From NCBI GenBank assembly GCA_902596545.1, contig CACJUH010000003.1:45790-109789 (forward strand): DNA of 64,000 nucleotides, read 5' to 3'. The notes beneath the pieces were generated by a model, which saw nothing but the letters and a program-made list of their open reading frames with translations, ran no database searches and had not been told where the DNA came from. Every line of letters begins with the position of its first letter. The first letter of the stretch is position 1. Position numbers and translations under genes: made by a program. The DNA comes from an uncultured Candidatus Actinomarina sp. Lineage in GTDB: Bacteria > Actinomycetota > Acidimicrobiia > Actinomarinales > Actinomarinaceae. Shown one piece after another: positions 377 to 60,790 of this stretch.

Positions 377-2552
377 ATTTGTTAATTCTAAATACTAAAA
401 GATATGCTGAAATTAAAAAAATGAATATTGAAATAATGTTTAAGGATTTTTCTAAAGATGTATTTTCGAATGTTATGCTTACTTCGTTCGAATGGGGAAT
501 AACTCCCATAAATGATGGTGACAATCTATATGGGCCAGAACCATTTTCTATTTTCCAATTTGGAAAATATGATACTTTTACAATATGAAGTTCATTAGGG
601 TGTTCTGTCTCAAAAGTTATTCTGTTATTTGAAATTCTGACATTAGTAATTTCACTTTTTTTATTGGGAATTCTGTTTAGAATCTGGGATTCCTCAGAAT
701 TGATTCCTTCAATAATTCTTTTTTTGTTATCTAGTTTGAACTCTTTCATTGCAAGACTAAAAAAGCTATCAGTTTTTGCTTGTTTAAATACGGAATTAGA
801 AATCCTGTCAAGCAGTTTTGGATTAGTAAAATTTACTAATTCAGCATCAACAACTTGAACCTTGTCAGAATAAATTTTAAATACTGTAAATGGTGAGCTT
901 TGGAATAAATGCTCTAACTCATCTGACATTATTGCTTTGTCTGTAATCGACTCAGTATAAGAAATAAAATAATCTACTCCTAACTCTTTCATGTATCTTA
1001 CTCCTCTATCAAAATCCCCATTTATATAACTTAATCCTCCTACTGGGTTTGATGGACTTTCTGCTAAGCCAGACACAGTCACAAAATGAAAAGGGGTCGT
1101 AATGCTTGAATCGAAATAAAGACCTTCTACACTTTCATGGTTTGTAAACATAGGAATTGTCATTAAGACCATAGGTGTACCATATTTGTTTAGATCTGAA
1201 TTAGGCTCCCACATTATCCTCCCGGGCTCAAGTTGGTTAAGTCCAGAGTATAAATTTGTTATATCACTCCAGTCATCTTTTTGATCATACCCAGTAAAAT
1301 TCCAATTCAACCAATGTGGTAAGAAATTGACTGATGATAGAACTAATGCAATTAATGTTATTCCTAATCCATATTTAGGCTTATAAATAGCAACTATAAA
1401 TGAAAGCAAAATTATAAAAGAAATAAAATAAACAGTAACTGCATACCTCTCCTGCCATTTTTGAACATAGTTAAAAACAAAGAATGCTGAACAAATTAGA
1501 TATAAGAAAATAATTAAATATCTTCCTTGTATTTTTGCAGTTAGATAGTCCATTGTCTCATCAATGATTTTGAAAAATAGGATTATTAGACCTAAGTTAA
1601 AAAAAGGTACCAATCTTCCATTCCACAAAGCACCCTCTGGACCGTAAAAAAATAACAATGTTGATGCGAAAATTAAGTACATTTCAGTTGTTAAAAATAT
1701 ATGTTTCAAATTTTTTCCTGCTGCGAAAATTGCATAAGAAAATATTCCAATTGCAAAAGGAAGGACATCAGGCTTTATTAAATCTTTGATTTTTGTGTAA
1801 GGAGAGTATGTCATATTCGTTGTAAATTCTAGATTCAGAAACAAAGAGATAGAAAAGCGCAAAGTTAGAAACAAAAAAATTAATAACCCAACTAATTTTT
1901 CAAGATTTATAGATTTTGAAGACAAAAAATAAATTAAAAATATTGGTGCATAGATCAAAAATGGAATTATGTGTGAAAGCAAAGATAATCCCAACAATAC
2001 AGACCCTTTAATGACCGAAAGCTTTATCAAGTTATTACGTATGTAATAAATTGATAAATTTGCAAATGCTAAAGAATATGTAAATGAATACTGACCCGCA
2101 AGAGATGATGCTAGATTGCCTCCAAAGATAGTAAAAGACTCAGTCAACAAATATAATAATCCTCCAGCAAACCCAATATAAGATAAAGTACCAATTTTCA
2201 AATTTATTAACTTTTCTATTGAAATTACTAGGAGAATTAAGGCGATTAGCACCATAATTTTAAATGAGATATTGAAAGGAAGAATAAGATTTAAAATTGC
2301 AACAATAGATGGTGGTAATGGAAAATAAAAATAATACGCTGGGTAACCTGTAAACCAATCCTTCGACCAGCCACTAATTTTAAAATTGTAAAAAAGCTCT
2401 TCAACAAAAAATTTAGTTGGTACGATATGAGCGCCCATATCACCACCTGTTGGGAGTGTATTAAGAAATATTAAATCAATTCTTAAGAATATTAAGAGTA
2501 TTGCGAAAGGAAATACAATCGCAATGTTATTTGATTTAAAGTTATACTTCAC
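366..2552 (-). CDS. Polytopic membrane protein, putative GT-C fold glycosyltransferase (ArnT/PMT/arabinofuranosyltransferase-like) with a C-terminal soluble domain of about 270 aa
   Basis: 728 aa with many predicted TM helices. A conserved acidic residue sits in the first extracytoplasmic loop (TLPTGGDMGAHI). It is flanked by the GtrA-like gene, as in mycobacterial arabinan loci. The family call comes from architecture only. Confidence 0.45.
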   Translation of the reverse strand: MKYNFKSNNIAIVFPFAILLIFLRIDLIFLNTLPTGGDMGAHIVPTKFFVEELFYNFKISGWSKDWFTGYPAYYFYFPLPPSIVAILNLILPFNISFKIMVLIALILLVISIEKLINLKIGTLSYIGFAGGLLYLLTESFTIFGGNLASSLAGQYSFTYSLAFANLSIYYIRNNLIKLSVIKGSVLLGLSLLSHIIPFLIYAPIFLIYFLSSKSINLEKLVGLLIFLFLTLRFSISLFLNLEFTTNMTYSPYTKIKDLIKPDVLPFAIGIFSYAIFAAGKNLKHIFLTTEMYLIFASTLLFFYGPEGALWNGRLVPFFNLGLIILFFKIIDETMDYLTAKIQGRYLIIFLYLICSAFFVFNYVQKWQERYAVTVYFISFIILLSFIVAIYKPKYGLGITLIALVLSSVNFLPHWLNWNFTGYDQKDDWSDITNLYSGLNQLEPGRIMWEPNSDLNKYGTPMVLMTIPMFTNHESVEGLYFDSSITTPFHFVTVSGLAESPSNPVGGLSYINGDFDRGVRYMKELGVDYFISYTESITDKAIMSDELEHLFQSSPFTVFKIYSDKVQVVDAELVNFTNPKLLDRISNSVFKQAKTDSFFSLAMKEFKLDNKKRIIEGINSEESQILNRIPNKKSEITNVRISNNRITFETEHPNELHIVKVSYFPNWKIENGSGPYRLSPSFMGVIPHSNEVSITFENTSLEKSLNIISIFIFLISAYLLVFRINKYAK

Positions 2553-2790
2553 TTAAGGTTTTTCCCAAGTATTTTGTTCTTCTTTTTCCATTTTCTGTCC
2601 ATTCAGCATACCAATATGGACCGTGTGGACATTTTTGGCATGATTCTTTACCGCATTTAATATTTTTTGACCTATATGTGACGTTAATATCTTTATGAAG
2701 ATTCAATTTATTATCAACTAGAAGCTTTATTCTCTTTAAGTCTGTTTCGTTTAGTTCAGCTAAACCTTCTAGAATATCTTTATCTATCAT
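2542..2790 (-). CDS. Small zinc-ribbon protein (CGKESCQKCPHG ... basic tail)
   Basis: 82 aa with a CxxxxCxxC cluster followed by GPYWYAEW and a Lys/Arg-rich segment. It overlaps the downstream GT-C gene by 11 nt, which suggests translational coupling. Confidence 0.4.
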   Translation of the reverse strand: MIDKDILEGLAELNETDLKRIKLLVDNKLNLHKDINVTYRSKNIKCGKESCQKCPHGPYWYAEWTENGKRRTKYLGKTLSEV

Positions 2791-2835
2791 TATTAAAATG
2801 TTAGTTGAAAGGTCAGAAATAATAGGTTCTTAAAA

Positions 2836-3732
2836 TTGAAAAAAGTTACATATTTAAGCGGTGGTGTAGGTGGTGCAAAATTTGCTAAAGGCTTATATAA
2901 AGTAAGTTCGATTAAACTCTCAATAATTGTTAACACTGGTGATGACGAATATATTAATGGTGTATCACTATCTCCAGATATAGATACTGTAATATATGGT
3001 CTAGCTGGAATTGAAGGTGAATTTGGATGGGGAATAAAAAAAGATAAATTTACAGTTCATGAATATTTAAATAAATTTTTAAATACCAATTTCATGATTG
3101 GCGATAAAGATTTGGCTACCAATCTGTTTAGAAACCAAATGTTGCATGAGGGAAAAACTTTGACAGAAATTACTAATGAAATAAAATCTGAATTCAATAT
3201 TCTTTGTGAAATTATTCCAATGACTGATGACAAGGTAAGTACAAAATTAATTACAAAACAGGGCGAGAGGCTTGATTTTCAAAACTATTTTGTCCAAAAA
3301 GAAGGAAAACCAAGATTAAAAAATATTACATATAATGGATCAAATCAAGCAAAAGTTAGTAGCAAACTAATAAGAACTATTAGAGAAAGCGATACGATTA
3401 TCATTGGCCCTTCTAATCCTTATTTGTCAATTGGTCCAATTTTGTCTCTAAGAAAAATAAAAGATGCATTAATTCAACATGATAATGTTATAGTTATAAG
3501 CCCATTTATTAATAGCAATGCCATAAAAGGACCTTCGAAAAAAAACTTTACAGATATGGGTCTCACAGCAGATATTAAAGGAATTAAGAAATTCTATAAA
3601 AATATAGCTAGCAAATATATTGTACATTTTGGGGATTCTGATAATTTAAGCAATACTTATGAAGAGAACATTCTATTTACAACAATTGAAGATTCAAAGA
3701 AATTAGCTACAAAATTACTAAGCTATGAATGA
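2836..3732 (+). CDS. cofD: 2-phospho-L-lactate transferase CofD/FbiA (F420 biosynthesis)
   Basis: TTG start. LSGGVGGAKFAKGL and IVNTGDDEYINGVSLSPDIDTVIYGLAG match the CofD signature IVNTGEDxYIxxxYLSPDIDTVLY. Confidence 0.8.
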   Translation: MKKVTYLSGGVGGAKFAKGLYKVSSIKLSIIVNTGDDEYINGVSLSPDIDTVIYGLAGIEGEFGWGIKKDKFTVHEYLNKFLNTNFMIGDKDLATNLFRNQMLHEGKTLTEITNEIKSEFNILCEIIPMTDDKVSTKLITKQGERLDFQNYFVQKEGKPRLKNITYNGSNQAKVSSKLIRTIRESDTIIIGPSNPYLSIGPILSLRKIKDALIQHDNVIVISPFINSNAIKGPSKKNFTDMGLTADIKGIKKFYKNIASKYIVHFGDSDNLSNTYEENILFTTIEDSKKLATKLLSYE

Positions 3733-4423
3733 AATCTCAATTATTCCAATAAAAGGATTGCCCGAGGTCAAAAAAGGTGATGACCTAGCTTCGATGACTT
3801 TTGACCTGATTAACAAGTCAAGAAATGAGATTAAAGATAATGACATATTTGTAATTACTCAAAAAATTGTTTCAAAGAGTGAAGGTATGGAAAGAGACTT
3901 AAATAAATATGAATTTGAAGATTTAATTAAAAGTGAAACGAAACAAATTATTAGAAAACGTGGAGATTTAATAATTGCAAAAACAAAACACGGTTTCATA
4001 TGTGCAAATGCAGGAATAGATAAATCTAATATTGAAAAAAACAAAGCTCTTCTTTTACCCGAAGATCCAAATAAATCAGCTCATAAATTTAGAAGTCAAA
4101 TAGAAACTTCAAGTGGAAAAACAGTAGCTGTAGTGATTTCTGATACATTTGGAAGAGCATGGAGAAAAGGCCAGGTTAATTTTGCAATAGGGTCATCTGG
4201 CATTTCTCCTATTACAAATTATATTGGAAAATTCGACTCATTTAATAATGAACTATTTGCAACAGAAATTGCAACAATTGACGAAATTGCTAGTGCTGCA
4301 GAATTAGTTATGGAAAAGTCGATTGATATTCCAATAGCTATCATTAGGGGGCTTAAATATGAATCCTCAAATGAAAATGCTGAGTTACTAATTAGAGACG
4401 ATCAAGAAGATTTTTTTCTTTAA
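3725..4423 (+). CDS. cofE: F420-0:gamma-glutamyl ligase CofE (stand-alone, with no FbiB nitroreductase domain)
   Basis: 232 aa. The N-terminus reads IIPIKGLPEVKKGDDLA...VITQKIVSKSEG. The core CANAGIDKSN...LLLPEDPNKSA...VISDTFGRAWRKGQVNFAIG aligns to archaeal CofE. Confidence 0.8.
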   Translation: MNEISIIPIKGLPEVKKGDDLASMTFDLINKSRNEIKDNDIFVITQKIVSKSEGMERDLNKYEFEDLIKSETKQIIRKRGDLIIAKTKHGFICANAGIDKSNIEKNKALLLPEDPNKSAHKFRSQIETSSGKTVAVVISDTFGRAWRKGQVNFAIGSSGISPITNYIGKFDSFNNELFATEIATIDEIASAAELVMEKSIDIPIAIIRGLKYESSNENAELLIRDDQEDFFL

Positions 4424-5343
4424 GTTTTTAACCAACTTACTACTTCTTTTATGCCCTTATTTAGTGAAAATTGAGTTTCCCAATTTAATTTTTTTTGTGC
4501 CTTAGAACTATTCAAAACACTTCGTAGAAGTTCACCTTTTCTTGGCTCCTGATATATTGGTTCTATATCAGATGCAAATTCGGATTTTATCGTTTCTAAC
4601 AAATGATTGACAGATGTCTCTATCCCCGTCCCTATATTAAGAAATAAATTAGAGTCAATCTTTGATGATAAAATTAATGCATTTACAACATCTTTGACAT
4701 ATATATAGTCTCTTGTTTGTTTTCCGTCGCCATAAATAATTGGTTTTTCATTCTTTAAAATTTTATTTGAAAATATAGATACTACTCCTGCTTCACCATG
4801 AGGATCCTGACGTGGTCCGTAAACATTCGAGAGGTTCAAAATTGAATATGACAAATGTGTATTAATTGTCATACTTGTGATAATTTCGTTTAACTTCTTT
4901 TTACCAAAACCATATGGTGACTCAGGTTCGCCTGCAAAATCTTCTTCGCTAGTTGGTAAAATGTTTGGCTCACCAAATATTGTTCCACCAGAAGAGGTAA
5001 AAACAAATTTACTACAATCAGTGCTTAATAAAGTTTTTATAAGTTGGACTGGTTGTAGAATATTATGCTCAAAATCAAGTAATGGATCATCTACAGAAAC
5101 TACAACAGAAGATTGGGCTGCCAAGTGAAAACAAATTTGAGGATTAAATTCTTTAATTAAATTTAATGAATTTTTAGTACCAAAATCATCTTCAATTAAT
5201 TTAAAATTTCCCTTGAATTCAATATTTTCTTTTTTTCCAGTTAAGAAATTATCAAATACCAATATTTCATTATCAGATGATAAAAGTTCTTCTAATAGGT
5301 GTGAGCCAATAAAACCTGCTCCACCCGTAATTAAAATTTTCAT
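4420..5343 (-). CDS. NAD-dependent epimerase/dehydratase (UDP-sugar 4-epimerase-like SDR)
   Basis: MKILITGGAGFIGSHL Rossmann motif and the YGxxK catalytic dyad region (SPYGFGKK). Confidence 0.75.
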   Translation of the reverse strand: MKILITGGAGFIGSHLLEELLSSDNEILVFDNFLTGKKENIEFKGNFKLIEDDFGTKNSLNLIKEFNPQICFHLAAQSSVVVSVDDPLLDFEHNILQPVQLIKTLLSTDCSKFVFTSSGGTIFGEPNILPTSEEDFAGEPESPYGFGKKKLNEIITSMTINTHLSYSILNLSNVYGPRQDPHGEAGVVSIFSNKILKNEKPIIYGDGKQTRDYIYVKDVVNALILSSKIDSNLFLNIGTGIETSVNHLLETIKSEFASDIEPIYQEPRKGELLRSVLNSSKAQKKLNWETQFSLNKGIKEVVSWLKT

Positions 5344-5345
5344 TT

Positions 5346-6221
5346 TTAATTTGTTCTAACTATTTCGTTTTTAATTATACTTCCACTTTCAATTGTTGAA
5401 TTATTGGAAATAATTGAATTTTCGATGACAACGTTTTTACCAATTTCGCAACCATCCAAAATTACACTGTTTTTAATAATTGAATCTTGATTTATTTTTG
5501 TATTGTTTGGAGATATCCAATTTTCTTTGCCATCAGGAAGGTGTGCTTGAATAAATGCCTCTCTAGTTCCAACATCAATCATGTTTCCTTTAACGGTATA
5601 CGTATTCAACAATTGATTTGATGACAGTCTAGGAAATACATCTCTCTCAAAAGAGCACGGAACATCAAGTGAAGAAAGGATGGACATAATATCTTTTTTG
5701 AAAAGGTGATAGAGTCCTAAGCTTATTTTTTTTCCAAATCTGTCATCCTCTGGCTTTTCTATGAAAGCTTCGACCTCCATTTTTTCATTTACTTTTAAAA
5801 CTCCATATCTTGATGGATTTTCAACTTCAAATGAACCAATTAATGAATTATTACAGCTACGAGCTGAATCAATGAAATTTTCCAAATCAACGTCTAATAA
5901 AAGGTCTCCGTTCATGCATAGAAATTTTTTGGGCATCGTTTGAATATTTTCAATAATATAACCAGCTGTGTCTAATTTTTTTTGCTCAAATAATAAATTT
6001 ATATTGTTGTTTGATGATGCTTCATAATCATTCCAATGCTGTCTGTGCTTTTCTGAACAAATTAGGTTAAATGTAAAATCAGAAAATTTTGAGAACTGAG
6101 TAATTATCTTATCAATTATCTTTTCACCTCTTATTGTTAAAAGTGCTTTTGGAATTCCAATAGATAACGGTTGAAGCCTAGTTGCCTCGCCCCCAACAAG
6201 AAGAAATATTTCATTCATCAT
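5346..6221 (-). CDS. Sugar-phosphate nucleotidyltransferase with a C-terminal left-handed beta-helix domain
   Basis: GGEATRLQPLS (GxGTRL NTP-transferase motif) and C-terminal hexapeptide repeats (NSVILDGCEIGKNVVIENSII...). Confidence 0.6.
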   Translation of the reverse strand: MMNEIFLLVGGEATRLQPLSIGIPKALLTIRGEKIIDKIITQFSKFSDFTFNLICSEKHRQHWNDYEASSNNNINLLFEQKKLDTAGYIIENIQTMPKKFLCMNGDLLLDVDLENFIDSARSCNNSLIGSFEVENPSRYGVLKVNEKMEVEAFIEKPEDDRFGKKISLGLYHLFKKDIMSILSSLDVPCSFERDVFPRLSSNQLLNTYTVKGNMIDVGTREAFIQAHLPDGKENWISPNNTKINQDSIIKNSVILDGCEIGKNVVIENSIISNNSTIESGSIIKNEIVRTN

Positions 6222-7596: not shown

Positions 7597-8667
7597 CTAT
7601 CTTTCAGAGGGGCCGATGTATTTTGCTGCAGGCCTAATTAAAATATCTTGTTCGCGTTGTTCAAAGTAATGGGCAGCCCATCCAACAGACCTCCCTGCTA
7701 CAAATATTGGTGTAAACAGGTCGACTTCAAATCCCAATTCAGCTAAAAGCAGACCTCCATAAAAGTCAACATTTGGAAATAGATTTTTTTCTTCATCCAT
7801 AATTTGGTCAATTTTCTTTGCAATTTCAAATCTATTTTTAGAAAACTCAGTCTGGGCTAACTTCTCAACCCAACTTTTAACTATTGGACTTCTTGGGTCT
7901 TGAACTTTATAAACTCCATGACCAAATCCCATTATTTTTTTCTTTTTTTCAAGTAATTGTTTAACTCCGTCTATAGCTTCCTCGACACTATCAAAAGAAT
8001 TTATTAACTCAACAGCTCTCTCATTTGCACCGCCGTGTAATTCTCCTTTTAAAGTTGCGATTCCAGACACAATTGCACCAGTAAGATCTGCTCTTGTTGA
8101 AGCAGTAACTCTAGTAGCAAAGGTTGATGCATTAAATCCGTGCTCTGCATAAAGAATTAACATGTCGTCTAGTGCTTCGAGCTGGTCCTTTGATGAGCTA
8201 TTGGGCAATAAAGAACTAGCAACTAAATACTGGCTATCTAACTCATCACAACTCTCTTCATGATAAGAAGCGATAATATAACAAACTGTTGCATTAATCC
8301 TTGCAGATAATTCAGTTTTATCTTCTTTATCAAGTTGTTGTTTTCTTAAAGTTGTTAATTCACCTTTGTAAGACACTAATGTTCTAATTACATCCATCGG
8401 ATGTAATGTTTGTTTTATTTCGTTAAGCAAGTCATTGATTTTTTGGTCTTTGCTTATCTCAAGATAGTATTTTGAAAAACTTTTTTTAAAGTCTTTATCG
8501 TTAAGTGAGTCAGCAATAATTAATGATGCTACTTGTTCATAAGTGTTATTTTTTGTTAAATCTGTTGCGTCATAACCTCTATATCTTAAAGAAGTACCCT
8601 CTTTTCCAACCGTTGAGATAGAGGTTTCGCCAGCAACAACTCCCCTTAAGCCTGGTGAAAATTCCAT
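7597..8667 (-). CDS. prpC: Citrate synthase family protein, probably 2-methylcitrate synthase
   Basis: GFGHGVYK (citrate synthase His motif), ...DFYGG..., and a C-terminal AGRSVGWAAHY. It is 356 aa and is adjacent to prpD. Confidence 0.7.
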   Translation of the reverse strand: MEFSPGLRGVVAGETSISTVGKEGTSLRYRGYDATDLTKNNTYEQVASLIIADSLNDKDFKKSFSKYYLEISKDQKINDLLNEIKQTLHPMDVIRTLVSYKGELTTLRKQQLDKEDKTELSARINATVCYIIASYHEESCDELDSQYLVASSLLPNSSSKDQLEALDDMLILYAEHGFNASTFATRVTASTRADLTGAIVSGIATLKGELHGGANERAVELINSFDSVEEAIDGVKQLLEKKKKIMGFGHGVYKVQDPRSPIVKSWVEKLAQTEFSKNRFEIAKKIDQIMDEEKNLFPNVDFYGGLLLAELGFEVDLFTPIFVAGRSVGWAAHYFEQREQDILIRPAAKYIGPSER

Positions 8668-8714
8668 ATGTCTAATTGTACAATATTGTTACATATAAGG
8701 ATTAGAATTTTCTC

Positions 8715-19489: not shown

Positions 19490-21136
19490 CTAAGCAGAGG
19501 CAAAAGAATCTTTTGCATGATATGAAGATCTAACAAGCGGCCCAGATTCAACATGTGGAATACCATAAGATTCACCAATGATTTTATAATCTTCAAATTC
19601 TTCAATTGTCGCATATCTATCTATTGGTCTATGTTTTGCAGTTGGTCTTAGGTATTGACCAATAGTGACAATATCCACTTCAATTTTCGACAAATCTTTT
19701 AATACTGATATAACTTCTTCTTTAGTCTCTCCCATACCAACAATTAAACCAGTTTTAGTTTTACCTATAAATCCTTGTTTTTTTACATACTCTAGCAAAG
19801 AAAGGGACCTTCCGTAAGAAGCAGCCGTTCTAATCTCTCTTTGAAGTCTTGGTACAGTTTCTAAATTATGATTAAAAACTTCTGGAGAGGCATCAATTAT
19901 ATTCTGTATTGCAGATCTTAAACCTTTAAAATCAGGAACTAATACTTCAACATCACAATGACTATTTTTATCTTTAACGGCTCTAATCGTATCAGCAAAG
20001 AACATAGACCCTCCATCTTCAAGGTCATCACGATTAACTGAAGTAATAACCGCATGAGTTAAATTCATTGCCTGGACGCTTTCTGCTACTCTAAGTGGTT
20101 CTCCTAAATCAAGTTCACCAGGCCTTCCAGTTTTTACATCACAAAAACCACAAGCACGAGTACAAACATCGCCCATAATCATAAAAGTTGCAGTTCCCAT
20201 TGACCAGCATTCATATATATTTGGGCATGAAGCTTCCTCGCATACGGTATTTAATTTTTTTTCACTTAATAAATTTTTTAGTGAAACATAATCACTGCCT
20301 AGATTAGCCTTAACCTTCATCCATTCAGGTCTTTTAGGTTCACTTGGCAAAACACCTCTTACAGTTACTGGAATTTTATTTTGGTTTATTTTAAATACTC
20401 CGTCTTTCACCATTTGATCAATATTGAATTCTTTTGTTCTCTTTAACTGCCTTGGGGTAAATTGAGAAAACTGTCTATCAGTATTGGCATAACCAAATAC
20501 TTTTGCAAAGTTATCTGATATTTCACTTGCAACTTCCTCAAATGATATGTCTGGGTTAAATTGGTGAATGGATGTAATTTGTTCTGATTGGTTTCCACAA
20601 GGGTTAATTAATTGATATCCATCCAATGAATCAAAAATATTTAATGAAAAACCATGGTAGGTTGTCCATTTGCTGACTTTAATACCTACAGAAGCAATTT
20701 TACCTTTTGCTGTCCAAACACCTGTGTCATCTTCTTTTGTAAATGAATCAATTTTAAATTTTCTTAAGGAATCAATTATTACATTTTCTAGGTTGCGAAC
20801 GAATGGAATGACTTTTTTTGGATCAGAAAGTCGTAATATTGGATAGCCAATTAATTGTCCATCACCATGATAAGTTATATCACCACCTCTATCAGCTTCA
20901 AAATACTCAATCCCAAGTTCATGCAATTTGTCTTTTGAAACCAGTAAATTGTTTTCTTTGCTAGATCTGCCGGATGTAATTACATTATTGTGCTCTAATA
21001 GTAAAAGATAGTCATCTTTGGAATCTTCCTGAGAAACTGATCTGTGTAATCCAAGTTGTAAATCGTATGCTTCAGAATAAGGTAATTTACCCAACCAACG
21101 TATATTTAGATCTCTCAATCTAATCCCTGCGACCAA
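19490..21136 (-). CDS. lipB-lipA: Fusion of octanoyltransferase LipB (N-terminal) and radical-SAM lipoyl synthase LipA (C-terminal)
   Basis: The N-terminal half has RGGDITYHGDGQLIGYPI and PCG, with strong similarity to mycobacterial LipB. The C-terminal half has CEEASCPNIYECW and CTRACGFCDV (radical-SAM CxxxCxxC). Confidence 0.8.
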   Translation of the reverse strand: MVAGIRLRDLNIRWLGKLPYSEAYDLQLGLHRSVSQEDSKDDYLLLLEHNNVITSGRSSKENNLLVSKDKLHELGIEYFEADRGGDITYHGDGQLIGYPILRLSDPKKVIPFVRNLENVIIDSLRKFKIDSFTKEDDTGVWTAKGKIASVGIKVSKWTTYHGFSLNIFDSLDGYQLINPCGNQSEQITSIHQFNPDISFEEVASEISDNFAKVFGYANTDRQFSQFTPRQLKRTKEFNIDQMVKDGVFKINQNKIPVTVRGVLPSEPKRPEWMKVKANLGSDYVSLKNLLSEKKLNTVCEEASCPNIYECWSMGTATFMIMGDVCTRACGFCDVKTGRPGELDLGEPLRVAESVQAMNLTHAVITSVNRDDLEDGGSMFFADTIRAVKDKNSHCDVEVLVPDFKGLRSAIQNIIDASPEVFNHNLETVPRLQREIRTAASYGRSLSLLEYVKKQGFIGKTKTGLIVGMGETKEEVISVLKDLSKIEVDIVTIGQYLRPTAKHRPIDRYATIEEFEDYKIIGESYGIPHVESGPLVRSSYHAKDSFASA

Positions 21137-42593: not shown

Positions 42594-43221
42594 ACCAATA
42601 TTCTTTGCATTAGATGGACCTAATCTTAACGAATTTGAATTTATGTTAAAAAAATTAGAGGGTCATATTTTTGGAGTAAAAGTTGGTCTTGAAATGTTTA
42701 TCTCTGAGGGGCCAAAAGTAGTTGAAAAGTTGAAAAAAGATGGATGGACTGTTTTTCTTGATCTTAAACTTCATGATATTCCCAACACAGTAAGAAAAGC
42801 CACAAAAAGTGCTAATAATCTGGGAGCAGATTTTTTAACTATACACATTGCGTCGGGTAAAGATGCTTTACAAGAAGCTTATTCAAGCAAAAATGATTCT
42901 TTAAAAATTTTAGGAGTTAGTCAAGCACTTACAAGCTCAACAATGGATGCAAAAATGAGTAAGGGTGTATCTGAAGATTTTCTTTTGGCTAAGCAATGTA
43001 GTGTTGACGGTGTTATTTGTCCTCCAAGTGAAATAGAGAGAACTAAAAATCTTTATGATTTAATCGTTACACCAGGAATCAGATTAAACAACGATACCAA
43101 AGATGATCAAAAAAATACTACAACTCCAGAAAATGCAATACTTGCAGGAGCAAAATATATAGTTATGGGAAGATCCATAATAAATAATTTGGATTTTGTA
43201 ATGAATGAATTAGATATATGA
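42583..43221 (+). CDS. pyrF: Orotidine 5'-phosphate decarboxylase
   Basis: DLKLHDIPNTV (DxKxxDIP) motif and 212 aa length. Confidence 0.8.
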   Translation: MSVKPIFFALDGPNLNEFEFMLKKLEGHIFGVKVGLEMFISEGPKVVEKLKKDGWTVFLDLKLHDIPNTVRKATKSANNLGADFLTIHIASGKDALQEAYSSKNDSLKILGVSQALTSSTMDAKMSKGVSEDFLLAKQCSVDGVICPPSEIERTKNLYDLIVTPGIRLNNDTKDDQKNTTTPENAILAGAKYIVMGRSIINNLDFVMNELDI

Positions 43222-43895
43222 AAAAATTTATAGCTGCACCTTTTGGAAATTATATAAAAACAAAAAATACAATTTCCGTATCAGGTAGCTGGACTATTGA
43301 AAAAAGAACAGGGCGAATAATACAAATAGCGAAATCTCTGCGCTACACCAAAAGAGGCTGGGTAAATAAAATTGGCCTAAGAAATCCTGGCTTAAATATT
43401 GGACTTGTCAAACACAAAGAAGATGAAGTATTTTCAATCGCAGGTATTGAAAGAAACGACTGGAGAATTTTTGCGGAAAAATTGCCAGAAAATTTTAATA
43501 TTGAAGTCAATATGTCATGTCCAAACATTGATGAACATTACGTAGATGGTATTGAAAAATTTAATCCGGATAGTCGAGATTGGTTCATTGGAAAAATTTC
43601 ACCACTTACAACTTTTATTGAGCTCGAAAATTACATTACTAAATTTAACTTTAAACAAATTCATGCTTGTAACACTCTGCCCGTTGAGAAAGGTGGTCTA
43701 AGTGGAAAAGAACTTATTCCTTATACTGAAAAGTTTATTAAACACATAAAACATCATTTTCCTCAAGTTGAAGTAATTGCTGGCGGAGGAATAGATTCCT
43801 TAGAAGATATTCAAAACTATGCAAATATTGGAGCCGATCATGTAAGTCTTGGAACTGTATGTTTTAATCCGCTAAAATTGAGAAAGTTAATATGA
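43218..43895 (+). CDS. pyrD: Dihydroorotate dehydrogenase-like, unusually short (225 aa)
   Basis: GLRNPG, NMSCPN and a C-terminal IAGGGIDSLEDIQNYANIGADHVSLGT all match DHOD motifs. The protein is about 80 aa shorter than typical DHODs. Confidence 0.6.
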   Translation: MKKFIAAPFGNYIKTKNTISVSGSWTIEKRTGRIIQIAKSLRYTKRGWVNKIGLRNPGLNIGLVKHKEDEVFSIAGIERNDWRIFAEKLPENFNIEVNMSCPNIDEHYVDGIEKFNPDSRDWFIGKISPLTTFIELENYITKFNFKQIHACNTLPVEKGGLSGKELIPYTEKFIKHIKHHFPQVEVIAGGGIDSLEDIQNYANIGADHVSLGTVCFNPLKLRKLI

Positions 43896-55168: not shown

Positions 55169-56686
55169 ATGGTTGATGTATTAGATAACAAAATAGAAAA
55201 AGTTTTAGATTCAGCTGATCGTATGTTCATTGCGACAAGTGTTGGTGGAAACTCTTCAGGAGCTTCCGTGTTTTTCAGTAGAGATGGGGAAAATCTAGTA
55301 TTCTTTACCTTCCACCCTACTCGTAAGGCTGAGCAGATTAGATTGAACCCTCGCGTTCATGTTGTTATATGGCCTAAAGGCCAAGAAGGAATTGAAGGTC
55401 TGCAAATTGACGGAGAGTGTTACAAAATAAAAGATGAAGATGAGAAAAAAAGAGCTTATGAGTTAGTTCTTAAAACTACTGACGCTTTCAAAGAATATAT
55501 GGAAGACGAATTTTTAATCAAAAATGATGTAGTTGGTTATTACAGAGTAAAACCTACAACAATCAAATATGTAAATTTTTATGAAGAAGAACAATTCCAA
55601 TGGAAGACAATACCAGGAAATAAAACTTCTGCTGTCAAAATGGCTTTTAAACTTGGTCTCAAACGAATTGGACTTTGGCTTAGGACAATTAGAGCGCCTT
55701 TCCTGACAGCAACATTTGCACCAATCTTCATTGGAGCTGCAGTTGCGTGGAATGATTTGAAAGACGCTGGGTTAGACTCTTCATGGTCATGGAGAATGTT
55801 TTGGCTAGTTTTAGGAGGTGCTTCTCTAGCTCAAGTTGCTACGAATGCATCAAATGATTATTTTGATCATACTTCTAACGCAGACGAAATAAACAAAGTA
55901 CCAAGTCCGTTTAATGGTGGAAGTAGAGTCATACAAGTTGGCTTAATGACACCGGGACAAGTCTTAATCACAGCACTTATGAGTATTGCAGGTACCGTAG
56001 CTATTGGTTTATATCTTAACCAACAAGTTAGTGGTTCATTTTTCGGAAATACTCCTATTTTATGGACTGGTATCATAGGAACATTTTTAGCTCTTGGTTA
56101 TACCGGGGATCCTGTCCGATTAGGGTATAAAGGACTTGGAGAGATAGCAATTGCATTAGGTTTTGGCCCTGTAATGGTAATGGGAGCACATTATGTTCTT
56201 ACAGCATCTATTCATGAAAATGTAGTCTCTAATTGGAATTGGATGGAAGCATTGATTGCATCTGTGCCAATTGCAATTCTTGTAATGTTGATTGTGTGGA
56301 TTAATCAATTCCAGGATGCACCATCAGATGCAGCTGTAGGAAAAAACACCTGGGTAGTAAGGACTGCAGAACAAGGTGAGTGGATGAAACTTGAAAAACC
56401 ACTTAGGTTGTACAAACAGTTTATGATTGAGGCTTTTATTGCAGTAGCTCTTGTTGGAGCACTGAGTTTCTTTACAGATTTTGGTACTGTTTATGCTTTT
56501 ATGGCGCTTATCCCCCTAGTACTAGTATGGAAAGCATTCAAAATGGCTGATGAGTGGATGATTAAGTGGAATAATCCCAATGCTGATCGACAAAAAGTTC
56601 CTTATGAACTTTTGTTAGTCAATGTATCAACAATTGGAATTCATTTTCTAACCGGAATCCTTTTAGCTGTAGCTTACATTTTGTAA
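55169..56686 (+). CDS. menA: Fusion of a PNPOx-like FMN/deazaflavin-binding split-barrel domain (N-terminal) with a UbiA/MenA-family prenyltransferase (C-terminal)
   Basis: The N-terminal ~150 aa have a PNPOx-like pattern (MFIATSVGGNSSGASVFF...VHVVIWPKG). The C-terminal part has LRTIRAPFLTATFAPIFIGA and NASNDYFDHTSNAD (UbiA NDxxDxxxD) plus ~8 TM helices. Confidence 0.7.
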   Translation: MVDVLDNKIEKVLDSADRMFIATSVGGNSSGASVFFSRDGENLVFFTFHPTRKAEQIRLNPRVHVVIWPKGQEGIEGLQIDGECYKIKDEDEKKRAYELVLKTTDAFKEYMEDEFLIKNDVVGYYRVKPTTIKYVNFYEEEQFQWKTIPGNKTSAVKMAFKLGLKRIGLWLRTIRAPFLTATFAPIFIGAAVAWNDLKDAGLDSSWSWRMFWLVLGGASLAQVATNASNDYFDHTSNADEINKVPSPFNGGSRVIQVGLMTPGQVLITALMSIAGTVAIGLYLNQQVSGSFFGNTPILWTGIIGTFLALGYTGDPVRLGYKGLGEIAIALGFGPVMVMGAHYVLTASIHENVVSNWNWMEALIASVPIAILVMLIVWINQFQDAPSDAAVGKNTWVVRTAEQGEWMKLEKPLRLYKQFMIEAFIAVALVGALSFFTDFGTVYAFMALIPLVLVWKAFKMADEWMIKWNNPNADRQKVPYELLLVNVSTIGIHFLTGILLAVAYIL

Positions 56687-57310
56687 TTGTCCGAAAAAGC
56701 TAACTTTTCAAACATATATAAGTTCTACGATCTAATAAATACTGTTTTAACATTTGGTTTTGATAAATCTTGGAGAGAAAAAGCAGTAAGTAACCTTATT
56801 GGAAATTCTGTTCTTGACTTAGGAAGTGGCACTGGTGCTGCTTACGAACAACTTCTTAACTTTGAAACTACTGCTATAGATCCAGATAAAAAGATGTTGG
56901 AGTTAAATACATTTGAAAATAAAGTTTTAGGCTCTGCTGAAAACTTGCCTTTTGAGGACAATAGTTTTGACAATGTTTTTTGTTGTTTCGTATGGAGAAA
57001 TGTATCAGATACTAATAAAGCTCTTCAAGAGGTATATAGAGTCTTAAGTCCAGGTGGAAAGTTTATCCTTTTAGATATGACAAGGCCTAAAAACCCTTTC
57101 TTGAAGATATTGCATAAAATTGGAACGTTCAAAGTACTTCATTTGGTTGGTCTTCTTACATTTAATTTAAAAGAGTATAGATTTCTTTATAAGTCTCTAG
57201 ACTTTTATCCTCAGCCAGAAAATCATTTAAAAAAAGATACTTTTATAGATCTTCAAATTGAGAGAATGGGTCTATTTAATTTTGTCTACTTAGCAGTTTT
57301 TACAAAGTAA
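56687..57310 (+). CDS. Class I SAM-dependent methyltransferase, UbiE/MenG-like (demethylmenaquinone methyltransferase candidate)
   Basis: VLDLGSGTGA motif I and LSPGGKFILLDM. Directly follows the MenA-like gene. Confidence 0.65.
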   Translation: MSEKANFSNIYKFYDLINTVLTFGFDKSWREKAVSNLIGNSVLDLGSGTGAAYEQLLNFETTAIDPDKKMLELNTFENKVLGSAENLPFEDNSFDNVFCCFVWRNVSDTNKALQEVYRVLSPGGKFILLDMTRPKNPFLKILHKIGTFKVLHLVGLLTFNLKEYRFLYKSLDFYPQPENHLKKDTFIDLQIERMGLFNFVYLAVFTK

Positions 57311-58519: not shown

Positions 58520-59179
58520 TTAGACTTTTTCTCCAGATTTGATTCTTGCCATTCCAAGTACCAATACACCAAGACCGACTTTATTAATAATGTCAGCAAT
58601 TGTGTAAAGAACTTCTCTAATAGCATCAAAATCTCCTGCTACAGGTGCTAGATATCCTAATGGATAGATTATCCAACCAACAAGTATTAGGTTTTTGATT
58701 TTCTCAAACTGTTCTGCCTCTGCTGCTTTTAGACCAGCACCTTCTGCTTGAAGATTTCTCATCAAGTAGACATATGCTACCATCGCAATTACAAATCCTG
58801 TCCAGTATTGATCTGAACCCGCACTTGATGTTTCGCCGTAATAACCGGCTCCAATCATAACGGTTGCAGCGACTCCCCAGTTTCTAACTTTTTCGTTATA
58901 CTCTGCGCCTGAAGATGTCACAGCAAGTACCTCTACAAACATTAGTGGTACTGTAAGGACCCAGTCGACATATCTTAACCCGGTATCATAACTACCACTG
59001 TCCCATGAGCCAGTCATTTTGTTATAGTGATACCACGCTATTCCTGTCACAAGAGCGGAGATATAAACTCCTTTTCTGTGCTTAGGATCTACTTCTCTTG
59101 ATGATGCTAGTAAAAATACTGTACCAGCGAGCATGCCCACTGTTCCCACCATAAAGAGTCTATAAGTAAGTTCAGCCAT
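58520..59179 (-). CDS. Microbial rhodopsin, proteorhodopsin/actinorhodopsin-like light-driven proton pump
   Basis: Seven TM helices. Helix C reads RYVDWVLTVPLMFVEV, with the D...T...E proton acceptor/donor spacing of proteorhodopsin. The Schiff-base Lys is in ADIINKVGLG. A strong SD (AAAGGAG) lies 8 nt before the ATG. Confidence 0.9.
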   Translation of the reverse strand: MAELTYRLFMVGTVGMLAGTVFLLASSREVDPKHRKGVYISALVTGIAWYHYNKMTGSWDSGSYDTGLRYVDWVLTVPLMFVEVLAVTSSGAEYNEKVRNWGVAATVMIGAGYYGETSSAGSDQYWTGFVIAMVAYVYLMRNLQAEGAGLKAAEAEQFEKIKNLILVGWIIYPLGYLAPVAGDFDAIREVLYTIADIINKVGLGVLVLGMARIKSGEKV

Positions 59180-59293: not shown

Positions 59294-60790
59294 TTATTTT
59301 GCAGAACTACTAACAAACTCTTTAGAATTACCCCATTTTTCTAAATATGGCTTTAAATTAAACTTCCTAGCCGCTGAATCTGATGTCATGTACCTTATTT
59401 TGCCGTATATTTTTCTTTCAGGACCCCACGCTCTGTCGTATCTACCTAAAATCCAAAAAACGCCGGAATAAGAATTAGGATCTCTTCCATCTAATGAATA
59501 CCTATCATTTAGAGTAATCATATAAGAAAGCGCTATTTGAGGATTTGGAGACCACTCCAATATCTTTTTTCCCCAAAGCATTCTCAGATAATTCTGAATT
59601 ACACCTTGTTCTCTTAGTTGATTTTGAGCTGCATTCCATATTTCATCATGAGTCTGCGAGTAAGTGAGCTGCTCAAGACTATAGATATGTTCTCTTTCGT
59701 CGTCTGAATGTTCACGAAGAGTCTTAATTGCCCACTCTGGCAGACTCGAATATTGATTGTAGTTGGCACGTCTTACACAAGTATGATATCCAAGTTCACG
59801 CCAAGTAATCAATTCATCTAAAAAGCTTTCGAAATTGAGTGAACCTCCCCACCAGCCTTCTCTCCTCCCAACTAAAGTAGGATTAATTTTTTCAGGTGAC
59901 CATGACTCATGTTCAACTAATCTCTCAAATACTTCATGAGTAGAAATTTGCCCAAAATGAAAGTAGGGTGACATTTGACTACTTGCTTTCTTTGATGGAT
60001 CGCTTCTATATTGTGCATAATCACTGTACCCCTCAGAAAGAAAATCATTAAATCTTTGCAAAGCATTAGAATACCCACCTTTAATTGAACTGACTTTTAC
60101 AGATTTATCTATATCCAATTGATCAAGAAATGAATCTATGTCTGTATTTTTAAAATCAAAAGGTTTCCAGGTTTTTTCTACTGAAGAAATCATTGAATTA
60201 TCAAAATCTTTAATTAACTCATCTAATGGGTCTTCCAATGGAGTCTCCACTATAAAATCTTCCAAATTTTTATGCAGATATCTTCTAAAATCATGTGCAC
60301 GTACATACTCTTTTTCAGAGAGCCTTATTGGCACAAGTCCATTTGAATCAACCAACTCATATCTTGATGGGATCTCTCCGGATGCCTTGGCTGTCATTTG
60401 TGGAACAAAGTAGGTTGGATAATCATCAGTAATTACAACAGACGCCTGCTTAGAAATCTCCGTTAGAAGCCCATCAGAATGTTTTGGTTCTGTTTCAACA
60501 AAGGGATAGTAATAAGCTTTTGTTTTTGATACAGCTTCAGAGACTTCCTTCATTCCGTCCATCATAAATTTATGGAATCTCAGACTCGACATTGGATAAT
60601 CAAGAATTAATGGCTCTAAAATTACTAAAGGCTGAGATAATTTATTAGCCCATTCGACTGCACGCTGTAGTGCAAAATTATATTTTGTTCTTTTAAATGC
60701 AATACACCAATAAATAACAAACTTTGAAGAACTCACATCTGGGGTGATATCTTTTAATGTTGTTACTCTTGAGTAAGGAACTTGAACCAT
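59294..60790 (-). CDS. phr: Class II CPD deoxyribodipyrimidine photolyase
   Basis: The C-terminal region MSPYFHFGQIS...HIYSLEQLTYSQTHDEIWNAAQNQL...RMLWGKKILEWS...NDRYSLDGRDPNSYSGVFW...DRAWGPERKIYGKIRYM aligns closely to class II photolyases such as Methanosarcina CPDII. Confidence 0.85.
   Translation of the reverse strand: MVQVPYSRVTTLKDITPDVSSSKFVIYWCIAFKRTKYNFALQRAVEWANKLSQPLVILEPLILDYPMSSLRFHKFMMDGMKEVSEAVSKTKAYYYPFVETEPKHSDGLLTEISKQASVVITDDYPTYFVPQMTAKASGEIPSRYELVDSNGLVPIRLSEKEYVRAHDFRRYLHKNLEDFIVETPLEDPLDELIKDFDNSMISSVEKTWKPFDFKNTDIDSFLDQLDIDKSVKVSSIKGGYSNALQRFNDFLSEGYSDYAQYRSDPSKKASSQMSPYFHFGQISTHEVFERLVEHESWSPEKINPTLVGRREGWWGGSLNFESFLDELITWRELGYHTCVRRANYNQYSSLPEWAIKTLREHSDDEREHIYSLEQLTYSQTHDEIWNAAQNQLREQGVIQNYLRMLWGKKILEWSPNPQIALSYMITLNDRYSLDGRDPNSYSGVFWILGRYDRAWGPERKIYGKIRYMTSDSAARKFNLKPYLEKWGNSKEFVSSSAK

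Follow-up and report, generated by a model that had tools for sequence, protein, structure and literature searches.

This locus raises the question of how F420 synthesis is completed where the gamma-glutamyl ligase CofE stands alone, and whether such a ligase is archaeal, a shortened FbiB or an unfused actinobacterial protein. We analyzed a 64,000-nucleotide stretch of DNA (the window) in which cofE follows cofD directly (Table 1). The two are ordinary, intact genes for late steps of F420 biosynthesis. We consider it very probable that they are the vertically inherited actinobacterial fbiA/cofD-cofE pair of the Actinomarinales, with an unfused CofE of the FbiB lineage that is class-wide. As it stands, the finding has little weight, confirming two well-characterized genes in a lineage with published F420 capacity. 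The sharpened question is what replaces the FbiB reductase domain where CofE stands alone, the 'CofX' of Bashiri (2019).

Table 1. Features of the cofD-cofE locus and its flanks (window coordinates).
Feature	Coordinates	Strand	Remarks
DUF6788 gene, 82-aa Cys-rich product	2542..2790	-	PF20586 weak (0.0016); divergent; context only
Divergent intergenic region, DUF6788 gene to cofD	2791..2835	.	45 nt; presumed promoter and RBS region
cofD / fbiA	2836..3732	+	298 aa; TTG start
cofD stop / cofE start overlap	3725..3732	+	8 nt, ATGAATGA
cofE	3725..4423	+	232 aa; ATG start
NAD-dependent sugar epimerase/dehydratase	4420..5343	-	PF01370/PF16363; convergent; synteny marker, outside the pathway
ManC-like sugar-1-phosphate nucleotidyltransferase	5346..6221	-	PF00483; synteny marker

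The window has the gene order of the Ca. Actinomarina AG-447-G15 single-cell genome (GCA_902593475.1), from a 728-aa membrane protein through PBP1, and the CofE of that genome is 73% identical to the window CofE. At 57.3-60.8 kb a rhodopsin gene lies between photolyase and thiol-disulfide genes (the MAC-rhodopsin/photolyase locus), a locus described with the same neighbors by Ghai (2013; PMC3747508). The exact window proteins are also present on Tara Oceans contigs. An exact look-up of a protein near the right edge of the window gave no record. The earlier note had guessed a low-GC, streamlined marine heterotroph, which agrees with the GC of the window (0.29-0.38) and its assignment to the Actinomarinales, whose highly streamlined genomes are about 1 Mb (PMC7771536). 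Its view that F420 use in such an organism is notable was overstated: for Ca. Actinomarinales, both the F420 pathway and enzymes that depend on F420 were published in 2013 and 2020 and are not new (Ghai 2013, PMC3747508; Lopez-Perez 2020, PMC7771536). The second of these papers, which covers 182 genomes, also reports a number of F420-dependent oxidoreductases and a second nuo cluster that resembles Fpo.

The profile scores of CofD and CofE lie far above chance level. CofD matches PF01933 at 1e-43 (150.1 bits against a threshold of 30) and passes the NCBIfam equivalog model TIGR01819 with 269.6 bits (cut-off 257.45). Among solved structures, it scores 166.9 bits with Methanosarcina mazei CofD, 127.5 bits with Mycobacterium smegmatis FbiA and only 25.7 bits with the YvcK-family protein SP_1565. 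The motifs LSGGVGGAKF (GGxGGAK) and IIGPSNPYLSIGPIL (GPSNP...SIGPI) align with the M. mazei and M. smegmatis proteins. We take the N-terminal GGxGxxK/R to be a nucleotide-binding motif. The top named genomic matches are from Actinomarina (417 bits), followed by Actinomycetota/Acidimicrobiia (190-216 bits). CofD is therefore a predicted transferase; its substrates would be Fo and a GDP-activated three-carbon phospho-acid (EPPG, LPPG or GPPG), and its product (dehydro-)F420-0.

CofE matches PF01996 at 3e-57 and TIGR01916 with 232.8 bits (cut-off 180.65), its residues 4-231 covering profile positions 1-243 of 244. It carries the invariant motifs CANAGID.SN, DTFGR.WR.G and DE..SAAEL. A 17-sequence alignment shows no variation at D99, S101, N102, D140, G143, R147, D186 and E187, and at least 90% conservation at T141. 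These residues align with Archaeoglobus fulgidus CofE, the match among solved structures at 2.5e-40. Presumably they are the metal or GTP ligands of the A. fulgidus active site. CofE is a predicted single-domain F420-0:L-glutamate (gamma-glutamyl) ligase. Since the isolated N-terminal domain of M. tuberculosis FbiB was reported to glutamylate F420-1 only (PMC6450877), it is an assumption that an FbiB-type CofE that is unfused by nature would act on F420-0.

Both superfamilies have members outside F420 metabolism, and the pair could in principle comprise a CofD-like protein of the YvcK/UPF0052 type and a ligase with another substrate, for example a folate-type gamma-glutamyl ligase. CofE does match TIGR04132, a putative folate-metabolism ligase model, at 4e-26, and CofD matches the YvcK/UPF0052 model TIGR01826 at 5e-12. 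However, these scores are far below the cut-offs (91.9 against 350 bits for TIGR04132; 46 against 196 bits for TIGR01826, over residues 95-220 only), whereas the F420 equivalog models are passed. The genes also lie side by side and are coupled, an arrangement found in bona fide F420 operons with fbiC and fbiE as further members, and F420-dependent enzymes are reported for the Actinomarinales. We regard a non-F420 function as extremely improbable. The earlier note had called both signatures unambiguous and had named membership of the YvcK/UPF0052 family as a finding that would overturn its reading; the two equivalog scores bear out the first statement, and the YvcK model fails clearly.

In the proposed pathway, a CofC/FbiD enzyme would make the GDP-activated three-carbon phospho-acid, CofD would move it onto the deazaflavin Fo, and CofE would add the gamma-glutamyl tail with GTP and a divalent metal. 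The stop of cofD and the start of cofE read AGC TAT GAA TGA / ATG AAT GAA, and the 8-nt overlap that the earlier note described was recovered in this junction sequence. It implies that the two genes are translationally coupled. The same overlap is found in AG-447-G15 (7993-8889 / 8882-9580), and in most Acidimicrobiia loci the overlap is 4 nt. The TTG start of cofD is supported by an Actinomarina orthologue of equal length (298 aa) with ATG at the matching position. The upstream intergenic region has no outstanding signal in the promoter-like scan (15 sites against 13.4 ± 3.8 expected, the chance level), and no terminator-like site was found by scanning positions 2300-4700.

No cofC, cofG/H, fbiC or nitroreductase gene was found by Pfam among the window ORFs of at least 110 aa, and custom HMMs run with filters off at E≤10 gave no CofC or nitroreductase match when every segment between stop codons of 40 aa or more was scanned; the absence of cofC, cofG and cofH from the window was likewise stated in the earlier note. 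We infer that CofD and CofE are active and, following the literature, that the remaining pathway (fbiC, cofC) lies elsewhere in the genome. For fbiC, cofC and any FbiE elsewhere in Actinomarinales or Acidimicrobiia genomes we rely on published claims, which are probably KEGG-based; no F420 gene list was found in the supplements of PMC7771536. We searched metagenome contigs for low-GC fbiC with a DNA pattern for VNRNIN[FY]TNxCY (Arg as AGR), and no Actinomarinales sequence was among the matches listed (at least 120 stretches): CofD/CofE on these stretches are at most 43% identical to the window proteins.

The cofE ORF stops where the ligase domain ends and overlaps the convergent epimerase gene by 4 nt, leaving no room for a C-terminal domain. 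The FbiB-type model NF009810 matches CofE at positions 11-242 of 449 only, in line with the 232-aa protein without a nitroreductase domain that the earlier note had described. One alternative is that CofE is an FbiB recently truncated by streamlining in the Actinomarinales. The streamlined, roughly 1-Mb genome with overlapping genes (PMC7771536) would fit such a deletion, as would the short-loop, FbiB-like state of the protein and the best raw score of the FbiB-type profile. However, a custom HMM detected no nitroreductase remnant downstream of cofE in any frame within the 64-kb window, and the same architecture is found far beyond this order. We compared 80 genome loci, those most similar to the window protein among the matches listed, with few Actinomycetes in the set. 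In 32 of 32 Acidimicrobiia loci cofD is followed by a single-domain cofE whose ORF ends 0-1 residue past the ligase domain; these loci include high-GC genomes (0.58-0.74), contigs of more than 1 Mb and a complete 2.35-Mb chromosome. The unfused state, whether by loss or by non-fusion, therefore predates the Actinomarinales, and single-domain CofE is an old, class-wide trait of the Acidimicrobiia instead of a product of streamlining. We consider recent truncation very improbable, and the description 'truncated FbiB' is not apt for a state common to the whole class.

The lineage of CofE can be read from the loop between G54 and R77. This loop has 22 residues in the window protein and 20-26 residues in 49 of 49 Actinomycetota-labelled CofE/FbiB proteins, whereas it has 39 residues in 15/15 Chloroflexota and 7/7 Thaumarchaeota, and in Rokubacteria too. 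Among unnamed representatives, the short loop occurs in 62 of 65 FbiB-like proteins and the long loop in 41 of 60 single-domain proteins. Flanking genes can be followed as well. Of the Acidimicrobiia loci, 29 of 32 have an epimerase homologue 3' of cofE; so do 8 of 11 loci from unclassified Actinomycetota, but none of the 15 Chloroflexota loci. A ManC-like homologue lies near cofE or fbiB in 20 of 32 Acidimicrobiia and three of four Actinomycetes loci, including a fused-FbiB Sphaerisporangium locus. Actinomarina and 5 of the 32 Acidimicrobiia loci keep the DUF6788 gene 5' of cofD. The pattern is contradicted by a few MAG labels ('Acidobacteria', 'Kiloniellales') unless mis-binning explains them.

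These observations bear on a second alternative, in which cofE, alone or together with cofD, is of archaeal type and replaced an ancestral fbiB after horizontal transfer from a donor such as co-occurring marine Thaumarchaeota. The single-domain layout is like that of archaeal CofE, the only solved CofE structures matched are those of A. fulgidus, and CofD scores higher with M. mazei CofD than with M. smegmatis FbiA. Identity to Nitrosopumilaceae in tblastn (47%) is also about equal to that to Acidimicrobiia (45-49%). We built neighbor-joining distance trees of the ligase domain from 132 unnamed representatives and 81 named sequences (raw and Dayhoff-6 recoded, 100 bootstraps), and these placed the Actinomarina pair beside low-GC SAR202 and Nitrosopumilus. 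However, the bootstrap support is 26-33%, falls to 23% on recoding, where the grouping is lost, and the partners are other low-GC sequences, which points to a visibly composition-driven placement. The loop is in the actinobacterial state, the flanking genes are syntenic with those of Acidimicrobiia and Actinomycetes, and the top named CofD matches are Actinomycetota. The archaeal-type model NF009809 (PRK13293) matches CofE in two stretches and fails (199.8 bits against 274) with the lowest raw score, and the FbiB-type NF009810 gives the highest (240.6 against 304). Transfer is very unlikely. We place CofE in the lineage of the actinobacterial FbiB N-terminal domain, a placement that rests on one indel and on synteny, with the distance tree giving no support. 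The 'archaeal-style' label of the earlier note holds for the architecture and fails for the origin.

The pair can be compared with known systems. The mycobacterial FbiA-FbiB (FbiA structure 6UVX) share with the window pair the transferase-then-ligase order, the short-loop ligase type and the transferase/ligase chemistry, and ManC-like and sugar-nucleotide genes lie downstream in both. We take Rv3261-Rv3262 to be the corresponding M. tuberculosis gene order. Likeness of the window CofD to FbiA is only moderate (127.5 bits), and mycobacterial FbiB has a nitroreductase domain, whereas the window CofE stops after the ligase domain. Archaeal CofD and CofE (M. mazei 3C3D; A. fulgidus 2PHN/2G9I) are the best solved-structure matches and share the catalytic motifs and a single-domain CofE of about 230-250 aa, but the archaeal-type loop between SK.EG and R.RG is about 16 residues longer and the genomic context is different. 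The Acidimicrobiia loci, such as L078 on the KE-4 chromosome (OZ239146.1), L017 of Ca. Microthrix and L025 of Sva0996, have the same architecture and envelope/sugar-nucleotide surroundings with no nitroreductase gene nearby. They differ from the window in being mostly high-GC, in the usual overlap of 4 nt against 8 nt, and in an identity of only 42-49%.

The nitroreductase (FbiE) module is fused to the ligase in Actinomycetes, encoded by the next gene 3' in a related Actinomycetota clade, and absent at the Actinomarinales locus and at all the Acidimicrobiia loci compared. Loci L024, L044 and L056 carry the fused FbiB. In the split loci of the uncultured clade (L021, L210-L212), an unfused, short-loop CofE directly follows cofD as in the window, and L210 and L211 also share the flanking epimerase and ManC-like genes. 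However, these loci carry a gene for FbiE of about 200 aa directly 3' of cofE and fbiC directly 5' of cofD, neither of which is in the window or at the Acidimicrobiia loci. The L210-L212 block reads DUF5719-GT2-fbiC / cofD-cofE-fbiE-DUF3105 / epimerase-ManC, and in L021 cofE and fbiE are separate genes with a 4-nt overlap. A search with the L021 FbiE returned, among the matches listed (at least 120), only members of its own clade (64-99% identity); the best available FbiE motif, APAPHxxxPWRF, is conserved in about 60-70%. Stand-alone FbiE is attributed to Thermomicrobia by Braga (2020), as cited in PMC8498797.

In FbiB, the C-terminal FMN-dependent nitroreductase domain reduces dehydro-F420-0 (PMC6450877), and the framework for this step is given in PMC8498797, PMC6450877 and PMC8764529. 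No nitroreductase gene lies within ±10 kb of cofE in the 32 Acidimicrobiia loci or in Actinomarina. The earlier note rightly left the choice between PEP, 2-phospholactate and 3-phosphoglycerate undecided. We give roughly even chances to a PEP-derived side chain, with dehydro-F420-0 as the intermediate and reduction by an analogous enzyme or by an FbiE homologue encoded at an unlinked site. A 2-phospho-L-lactate side chain is rather improbable; 3-phosphoglycerate (3PG-F420) and unreduced dehydro-F420 as the working cofactor are each slightly more so, and some other source takes the small remainder.

It is possible, though doubtful, that dehydro-F420 reductase is missing altogether from the Actinomarinales and from Acidimicrobiia at large, which would then use 2-phospholactate or 3-phosphoglycerate, routes without need of the enzyme, or dehydro-F420 itself. 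The fbiE gene is gone from the syntenic position where the related clade has it, the nitroreductase is absent both around the 32 Acidimicrobiia loci and throughout the window, and Hasan (2022) propose that 3PG-F420 arose in backgrounds without 2-phospholactate or dehydro-F420 reductase. However, fbiC has left the Acidimicrobiia locus too and must be elsewhere if F420 is made, so that relocation of fbiE is equally plausible, and unlinked FbiE homologues occur in several predicted producers (PMC8498797). Similarly tentative is the related idea that Acidimicrobiia, including the Actinomarinales, which are highly abundant at the ocean surface, lost FbiE/FbiB-C and make F420 with a non-homologous 'CofX' or a 2-phospholactate/3PG side chain, or use dehydro-F420 as the cofactor. 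If true, this would mean a route undescribed for Actinobacteria and would contradict the textbook statement of a fused FbiB. Because the unfused FbiB-lineage CofE is class-wide and the related clade has fbiE at the same syntenic position, the Acidimicrobiia, which have cultured members, offer a clean comparative system for the missing reduction step. They are also suited to finding out which variant of F420 is in circulation in surface seawater.

Neighboring genes were inspected for an alternative reductase. Clustering of neighbor ORFs in 47 Actinomycetota loci gave clusters contaminated by high-GC shadow ORFs, and Pfam annotation of the cleaner Acidimicrobiia loci gave sugar-nucleotide and envelope genes only. 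MenA carries a fused PNPOx-like domain, a conceivable alternative reductase or F420-dependent enzyme, but this idea was rejected for lack of specific support (TIGR03618, 17 bits against 79). The ManC-like gene was considered as a CofC substitute. In NCBIfam it comes closest to NF052502, a model of mannose-1-phosphate guanylyltransferase of the M. tuberculosis type, with a score under the cut-off, and it was rejected as a conserved envelope-sugar gene that also lies beside complete fbi loci with their own cofC/fbiE.

The two proteins belong to the CofD/FbiA and CofE families, whose equivalog cut-offs they pass. The first ORF matched Pfam CofD at 1e-43 and passed the NCBIfam equivalog TIGR01819 (269.6 bits, cut-off 257.45), and the second matched Pfam F420_ligase at 3e-57 and passed TIGR01916 (232.8, cut-off 180.65). 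The identities proposed in the earlier note are thus borne out, and the ORF listing agrees exactly with the positions it gave. The non-F420 YvcK family, named there as the refuting case, is ruled out for the first ORF, which scored 46 bits against the YvcK model (cut-off 196) while passing TIGR01819. Among solved structures, CofE matched A. fulgidus CofE (2.5e-40). For CofD the matches were M. mazei CofD, at 166.9 bits, and the ‘phosphoenolpyruvate transferase’ FbiA of M. smegmatis, at 127.5 bits. Nucleotide-binding and catalytic motifs line up in these alignments.

At the cofD/cofE junction, AGC TAT GAA TGA overlaps ATG AAT GAA, and the previously claimed 8-nt overlap (ATGAATGA), read in the sequence, implies that the two genes would be translationally coupled. 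The cofD orthologue of a related genome is equally long and begins with ATG, which supports the TTG start. The end of cofE overlaps a convergent epimerase gene by 4 nt and so leaves no space for another domain.

Coordinates of features in the window and in the compared loci (genome or metagenome loci, L-numbers)
Feature	Location	Coordinates	Strand	Details
cofD	window	2836..3732	+	298 aa, TTG start
cofE	window	3725..4423	+	232 aa, ATG start
epimerase gene	window	4420..5343		convergent to cofE
LipB-LipA fusion	window	19490..21136	-	548 aa
dihydroorotate-dehydrogenase-like ORF	window	43218..43895	+	225 aa; end of pyr operon
PNPOx-MenA fusion	window	55169..56686	+	505 aa
MenG/UbiE methyltransferase	window	56687..57310	+	directly after PNPOx-MenA gene
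rhodopsin gene	window	58520..59179	-	adjoins class II photolyase gene
class II photolyase	window	59294..60790	-	498 aa
split cofD-cofE-fbiE	L210	3939-9282		fbiC, DUF3105 alongside
split cofD-cofE-fbiE	L212	3956-9267		fbiC, DUF3105 alongside
split cofD-cofE-fbiE	L021	1-2452		fbiC, DUF3105 alongside
compact F420 operon	L093	4688-10360
compact F420 operon	L096	2844-8522
compact F420 operon	L106	7318-12990
FbiC-like remnant	L090	7604-7810	-	~60 residues, CofH-half motif region

The earlier note called this CofE archaeal-style, which holds for its single-domain architecture and fails for its origin. Its top raw score came from the FbiB-type model NF009810, whose cut-off it did not reach because the match covers only profile positions 11-242 of 449; the lowest came from the archaeal-type NF009809, which it failed (199.8, cut-off 274). 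The C-terminal nitroreductase (NTR) domain, already said to be lacking, was looked for and was absent, so the ligase is not a bifunctional FbiB, though of FbiB lineage by descent. Distance trees were not decisive: they drew the Actinomarina pair to low-GC SAR202 and Nitrosopumilus sequences with 26-33% bootstrap, and Dayhoff recoding left the pair without a resolved position.

Two discrete characters, a loop indel and synteny, settle the lineage. The loop from G54 to R77 has 22 residues in the window protein and 20-26 in each of the 49 sequences whose genomes are labelled Actinomycetota, whereas A. fulgidus CofE has the long form. The loop length is 39 residues in 15/15 Chloroflexota and 7/7 Thaumarchaeota, and also in Rokubacteria and others. 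Unnamed representatives have the short loop in 62 of 65 FbiB-like proteins and the long loop in 41 of 60 single-domain proteins. Downstream of cofE, an epimerase homologue is found in 29/32 Acidimicrobiia and 8/11 unclassified Actinomycetota loci, and a ManC-like nucleotidyltransferase homologue in 20/32 and 5/11 of these same groups and in 3/4 Actinomycetes loci, among them that of Sphaerisporangium with its fused FbiB. The 15 Chloroflexota loci have neither homologue. This synteny agrees with the M. tuberculosis surroundings, where fbiA-fbiB presumably adjoin manB, with pmmA, manA and sahH upstream. Genes for PMM, a PGI/PMI-like protein and AdoHcyase lie upstream in the contig of Ca. Actinomarina AG-447-G15. 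The best named CofD matches after Actinomarina are from Actinomycetota (190-216 bits). Loop, synteny and CofD matches together indicate that the pair is a vertically inherited actinobacterial fbiA/cofE. Three MAG loci labelled Acidobacteria, Kiloniellales and Acidobacteriota (L007, L010 and L014) have the short, actinobacterial form of the loop along with the epimerase synteny, and the first two joined the neighbor-joining clade in the same step as Acidimicrobiia sequences, at 98% bootstrap. All three contigs have probably been binned wrongly.

A truncated FbiB was the alternative raised earlier; its truncation by genome streamlining is rejected because every Acidimicrobiia locus recovered has the unfused state. 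The best 80 genome loci by similarity to the window protein include 32 from Acidimicrobiia (GC 0.43-0.74; one 2.35-Mb complete chromosome and contigs > 1 Mb). In all 32, cofE directly follows cofD and ends 0-1 residue past the ligase domain, and none has an NTR domain within ±10 kb of cofE. Their neighbours, such as GDP-mannose dehydratase, epimerases and glycosyltransferases, include no candidate alternative reductase. Fused FbiB was found in three of the 80 loci, among which Actinomycetes are few, all of Actinomycetes type (L024, L044 and L056).

An uncultured Actinomycetota clade shows an intermediate arrangement, with FbiB split in the syntenic block of the window: DUF5719 - GT2 - fbiC / cofD - cofE - fbiE - DUF3105 / epimerase - ManC-like. 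Here cofE encodes 227 aa and fbiE, the stand-alone NTR gene, 202 aa with a 4-nt overlap; this FbiE has at least 120 protein clusters, the matches listed for it all coming from its own clade. The Acidimicrobiia/Actinomarinales loci, in contrast, have neither fbiC nor fbiE. If F420 is made, fbiC must sit at another site, so fbiE may have been relocated too, although its loss is possible. Stand-alone CofE and FbiE are both known kinds. The main F420 review does not mention the unfused Acidimicrobiia cofE, and no paper joining Acidimicrobiia, F420 and fbiB was found in the literature searched. The class-wide state modestly refines what textbooks generalise and is no new system.

The best 150 CofE matches among 1.8 billion cluster representatives included 60 single-domain proteins, 32 CofE-NTR fusions, 7 N-terminal fusions (e.g., CofC-CofE) and 45 high-GC proteins with a C-terminal extension. 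This extension (P0134-P0269; 100-150 aa, often beginning LG(T/A)REA) matched neither our custom NTR HMM nor Pfam Nitroreductase. A degenerate or shortened C-terminal domain of FbiB is one possible reading; some cases are frameshift junk.

Mycobacteria incorporate PEP and reduce the resulting dehydro-F420-0 with the FbiB C-terminal domain, and Thermomicrobia use its stand-alone homologue FbiE (PMC8498797, PMC6450877). In the window lineage, CofC/FbiD, encoded outside the window, would activate a three-carbon phospho-acid with GTP, CofD would pass it to Fo, and CofE would add γ-glutamates; the coupled pair would secure co-expression. We compared all ORFs ≥ 110 aa with Pfam, unannotated ORFs with NCBIfam, and all stop-to-stop segments ≥ 40 aa with custom CofC and NTR HMMs (filters off). 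These scans found no cofC, cofG/H, fbiC, nitroreductase, LLM-class or FGD genes within the 64 kb, which confirms the absence of cofC, cofG and cofH claimed earlier. The acid is not readable from the window, as that note held, because its specificity is a joint property of CofC and the cognate CofD with the diagnostic residue in CofC (PMC8764529); no known CofD/FbiA residue discriminates EPPG from LPPG (PMC7253369). A PEP route with an unlinked FbiE or analogous reductase has roughly an even chance. A tentative alternative is that the known reductase is missing from Acidimicrobiia, which would complete F420 by a different route. 2-Phospholactate is an improbable side-chain source, 3-phosphoglycerate a very doubtful one, and unreduced dehydro-F420 is just as hard to credit.

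The window is Ca. Actinomarinales (class Acidimicrobiia) DNA, as three lines of evidence show. The 56-kb AG-447-G15 contig shares its gene order from a 728-aa membrane protein through PBP1 (CofE 73% identical), Tara Oceans contigs carry identical proteins, and a rhodopsin lies between photolyase and thiol-disulfide genes (57.3-60.8 kb), as described for MAC-rhodopsin (Ghai 2013, PMC3747508). The host supposed earlier, low-GC (window GC 0.29-0.38), streamlined and marine, is confirmed. F420 use in such a heterotroph, considered notable earlier, is not new. F420-dependent enzymes were already noted in the group (Ghai 2013, PMC3747508), and Lopez-Perez 2020 (PMC7771536) state in their abstract that the order has the biosynthesis pathway. 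They also report several oxidoreductases that depend on F420 and a second nuo cluster, without nuoEFG, that is like the Methanosarcina F420H2 dehydrogenase. A genome without Fo synthase or F420 enzymes, the other refuting case named earlier, is at odds with these published statements. The cofD-cofE pair is real and correctly identified, but it is ordinary and the literature already covers it.

The photolyase scored 368.9 bits against TIGR00591 (cut-off 550) and 238 bits against M. mazei class II photolyase, with no Pfam match at E≤0.01. The antenna of the M. mazei enzyme is 8-HDF (Fo); by analogy, the window photolyase could consume Fo directly, independent of F420.

The sole radical-SAM protein of the window joins a LipB-type lipoyl/octanoyl transferase catalytic domain to lipoyl synthase LipA, and its gene adjoins 2-oxoacid dehydrogenase E1/E2/E3 genes. 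Two unannotated ORFs (220 and 126 aa) are plainly membrane proteins. The dihydroorotate-dehydrogenase-like ORF is short, and matches only profile positions 190-274 of 291; a wrongly called start, a split gene or an unusual pyrD could explain it. A PNPOx-like split-barrel (residues 6-96) is in frame with MenA, the 1,4-dihydroxy-2-naphthoate prenyltransferase. The fusion is real and conserved, since intact relatives (52-81% identity) read on into the MenA membrane domain; apparent ‘stand-alone’ homologues were rejected as frameshift artefacts on low-coverage contigs. In structural-sequence comparison it is closest to generic FMN-type PNPOx/GSP26 proteins, with no specific F420 signal.

A low-GC (0.34-0.36) marine lineage outside Actinomarinales has a compact operon of long-loop cofE (254 aa), cofD, cofC, a ~312-aa gene and fused fbiC (793 aa). 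The FbiC-like remnant, on a contig of GC 0.32 with unrelated genes on either side, may be part of a pseudogene or result from a chimeric assembly.
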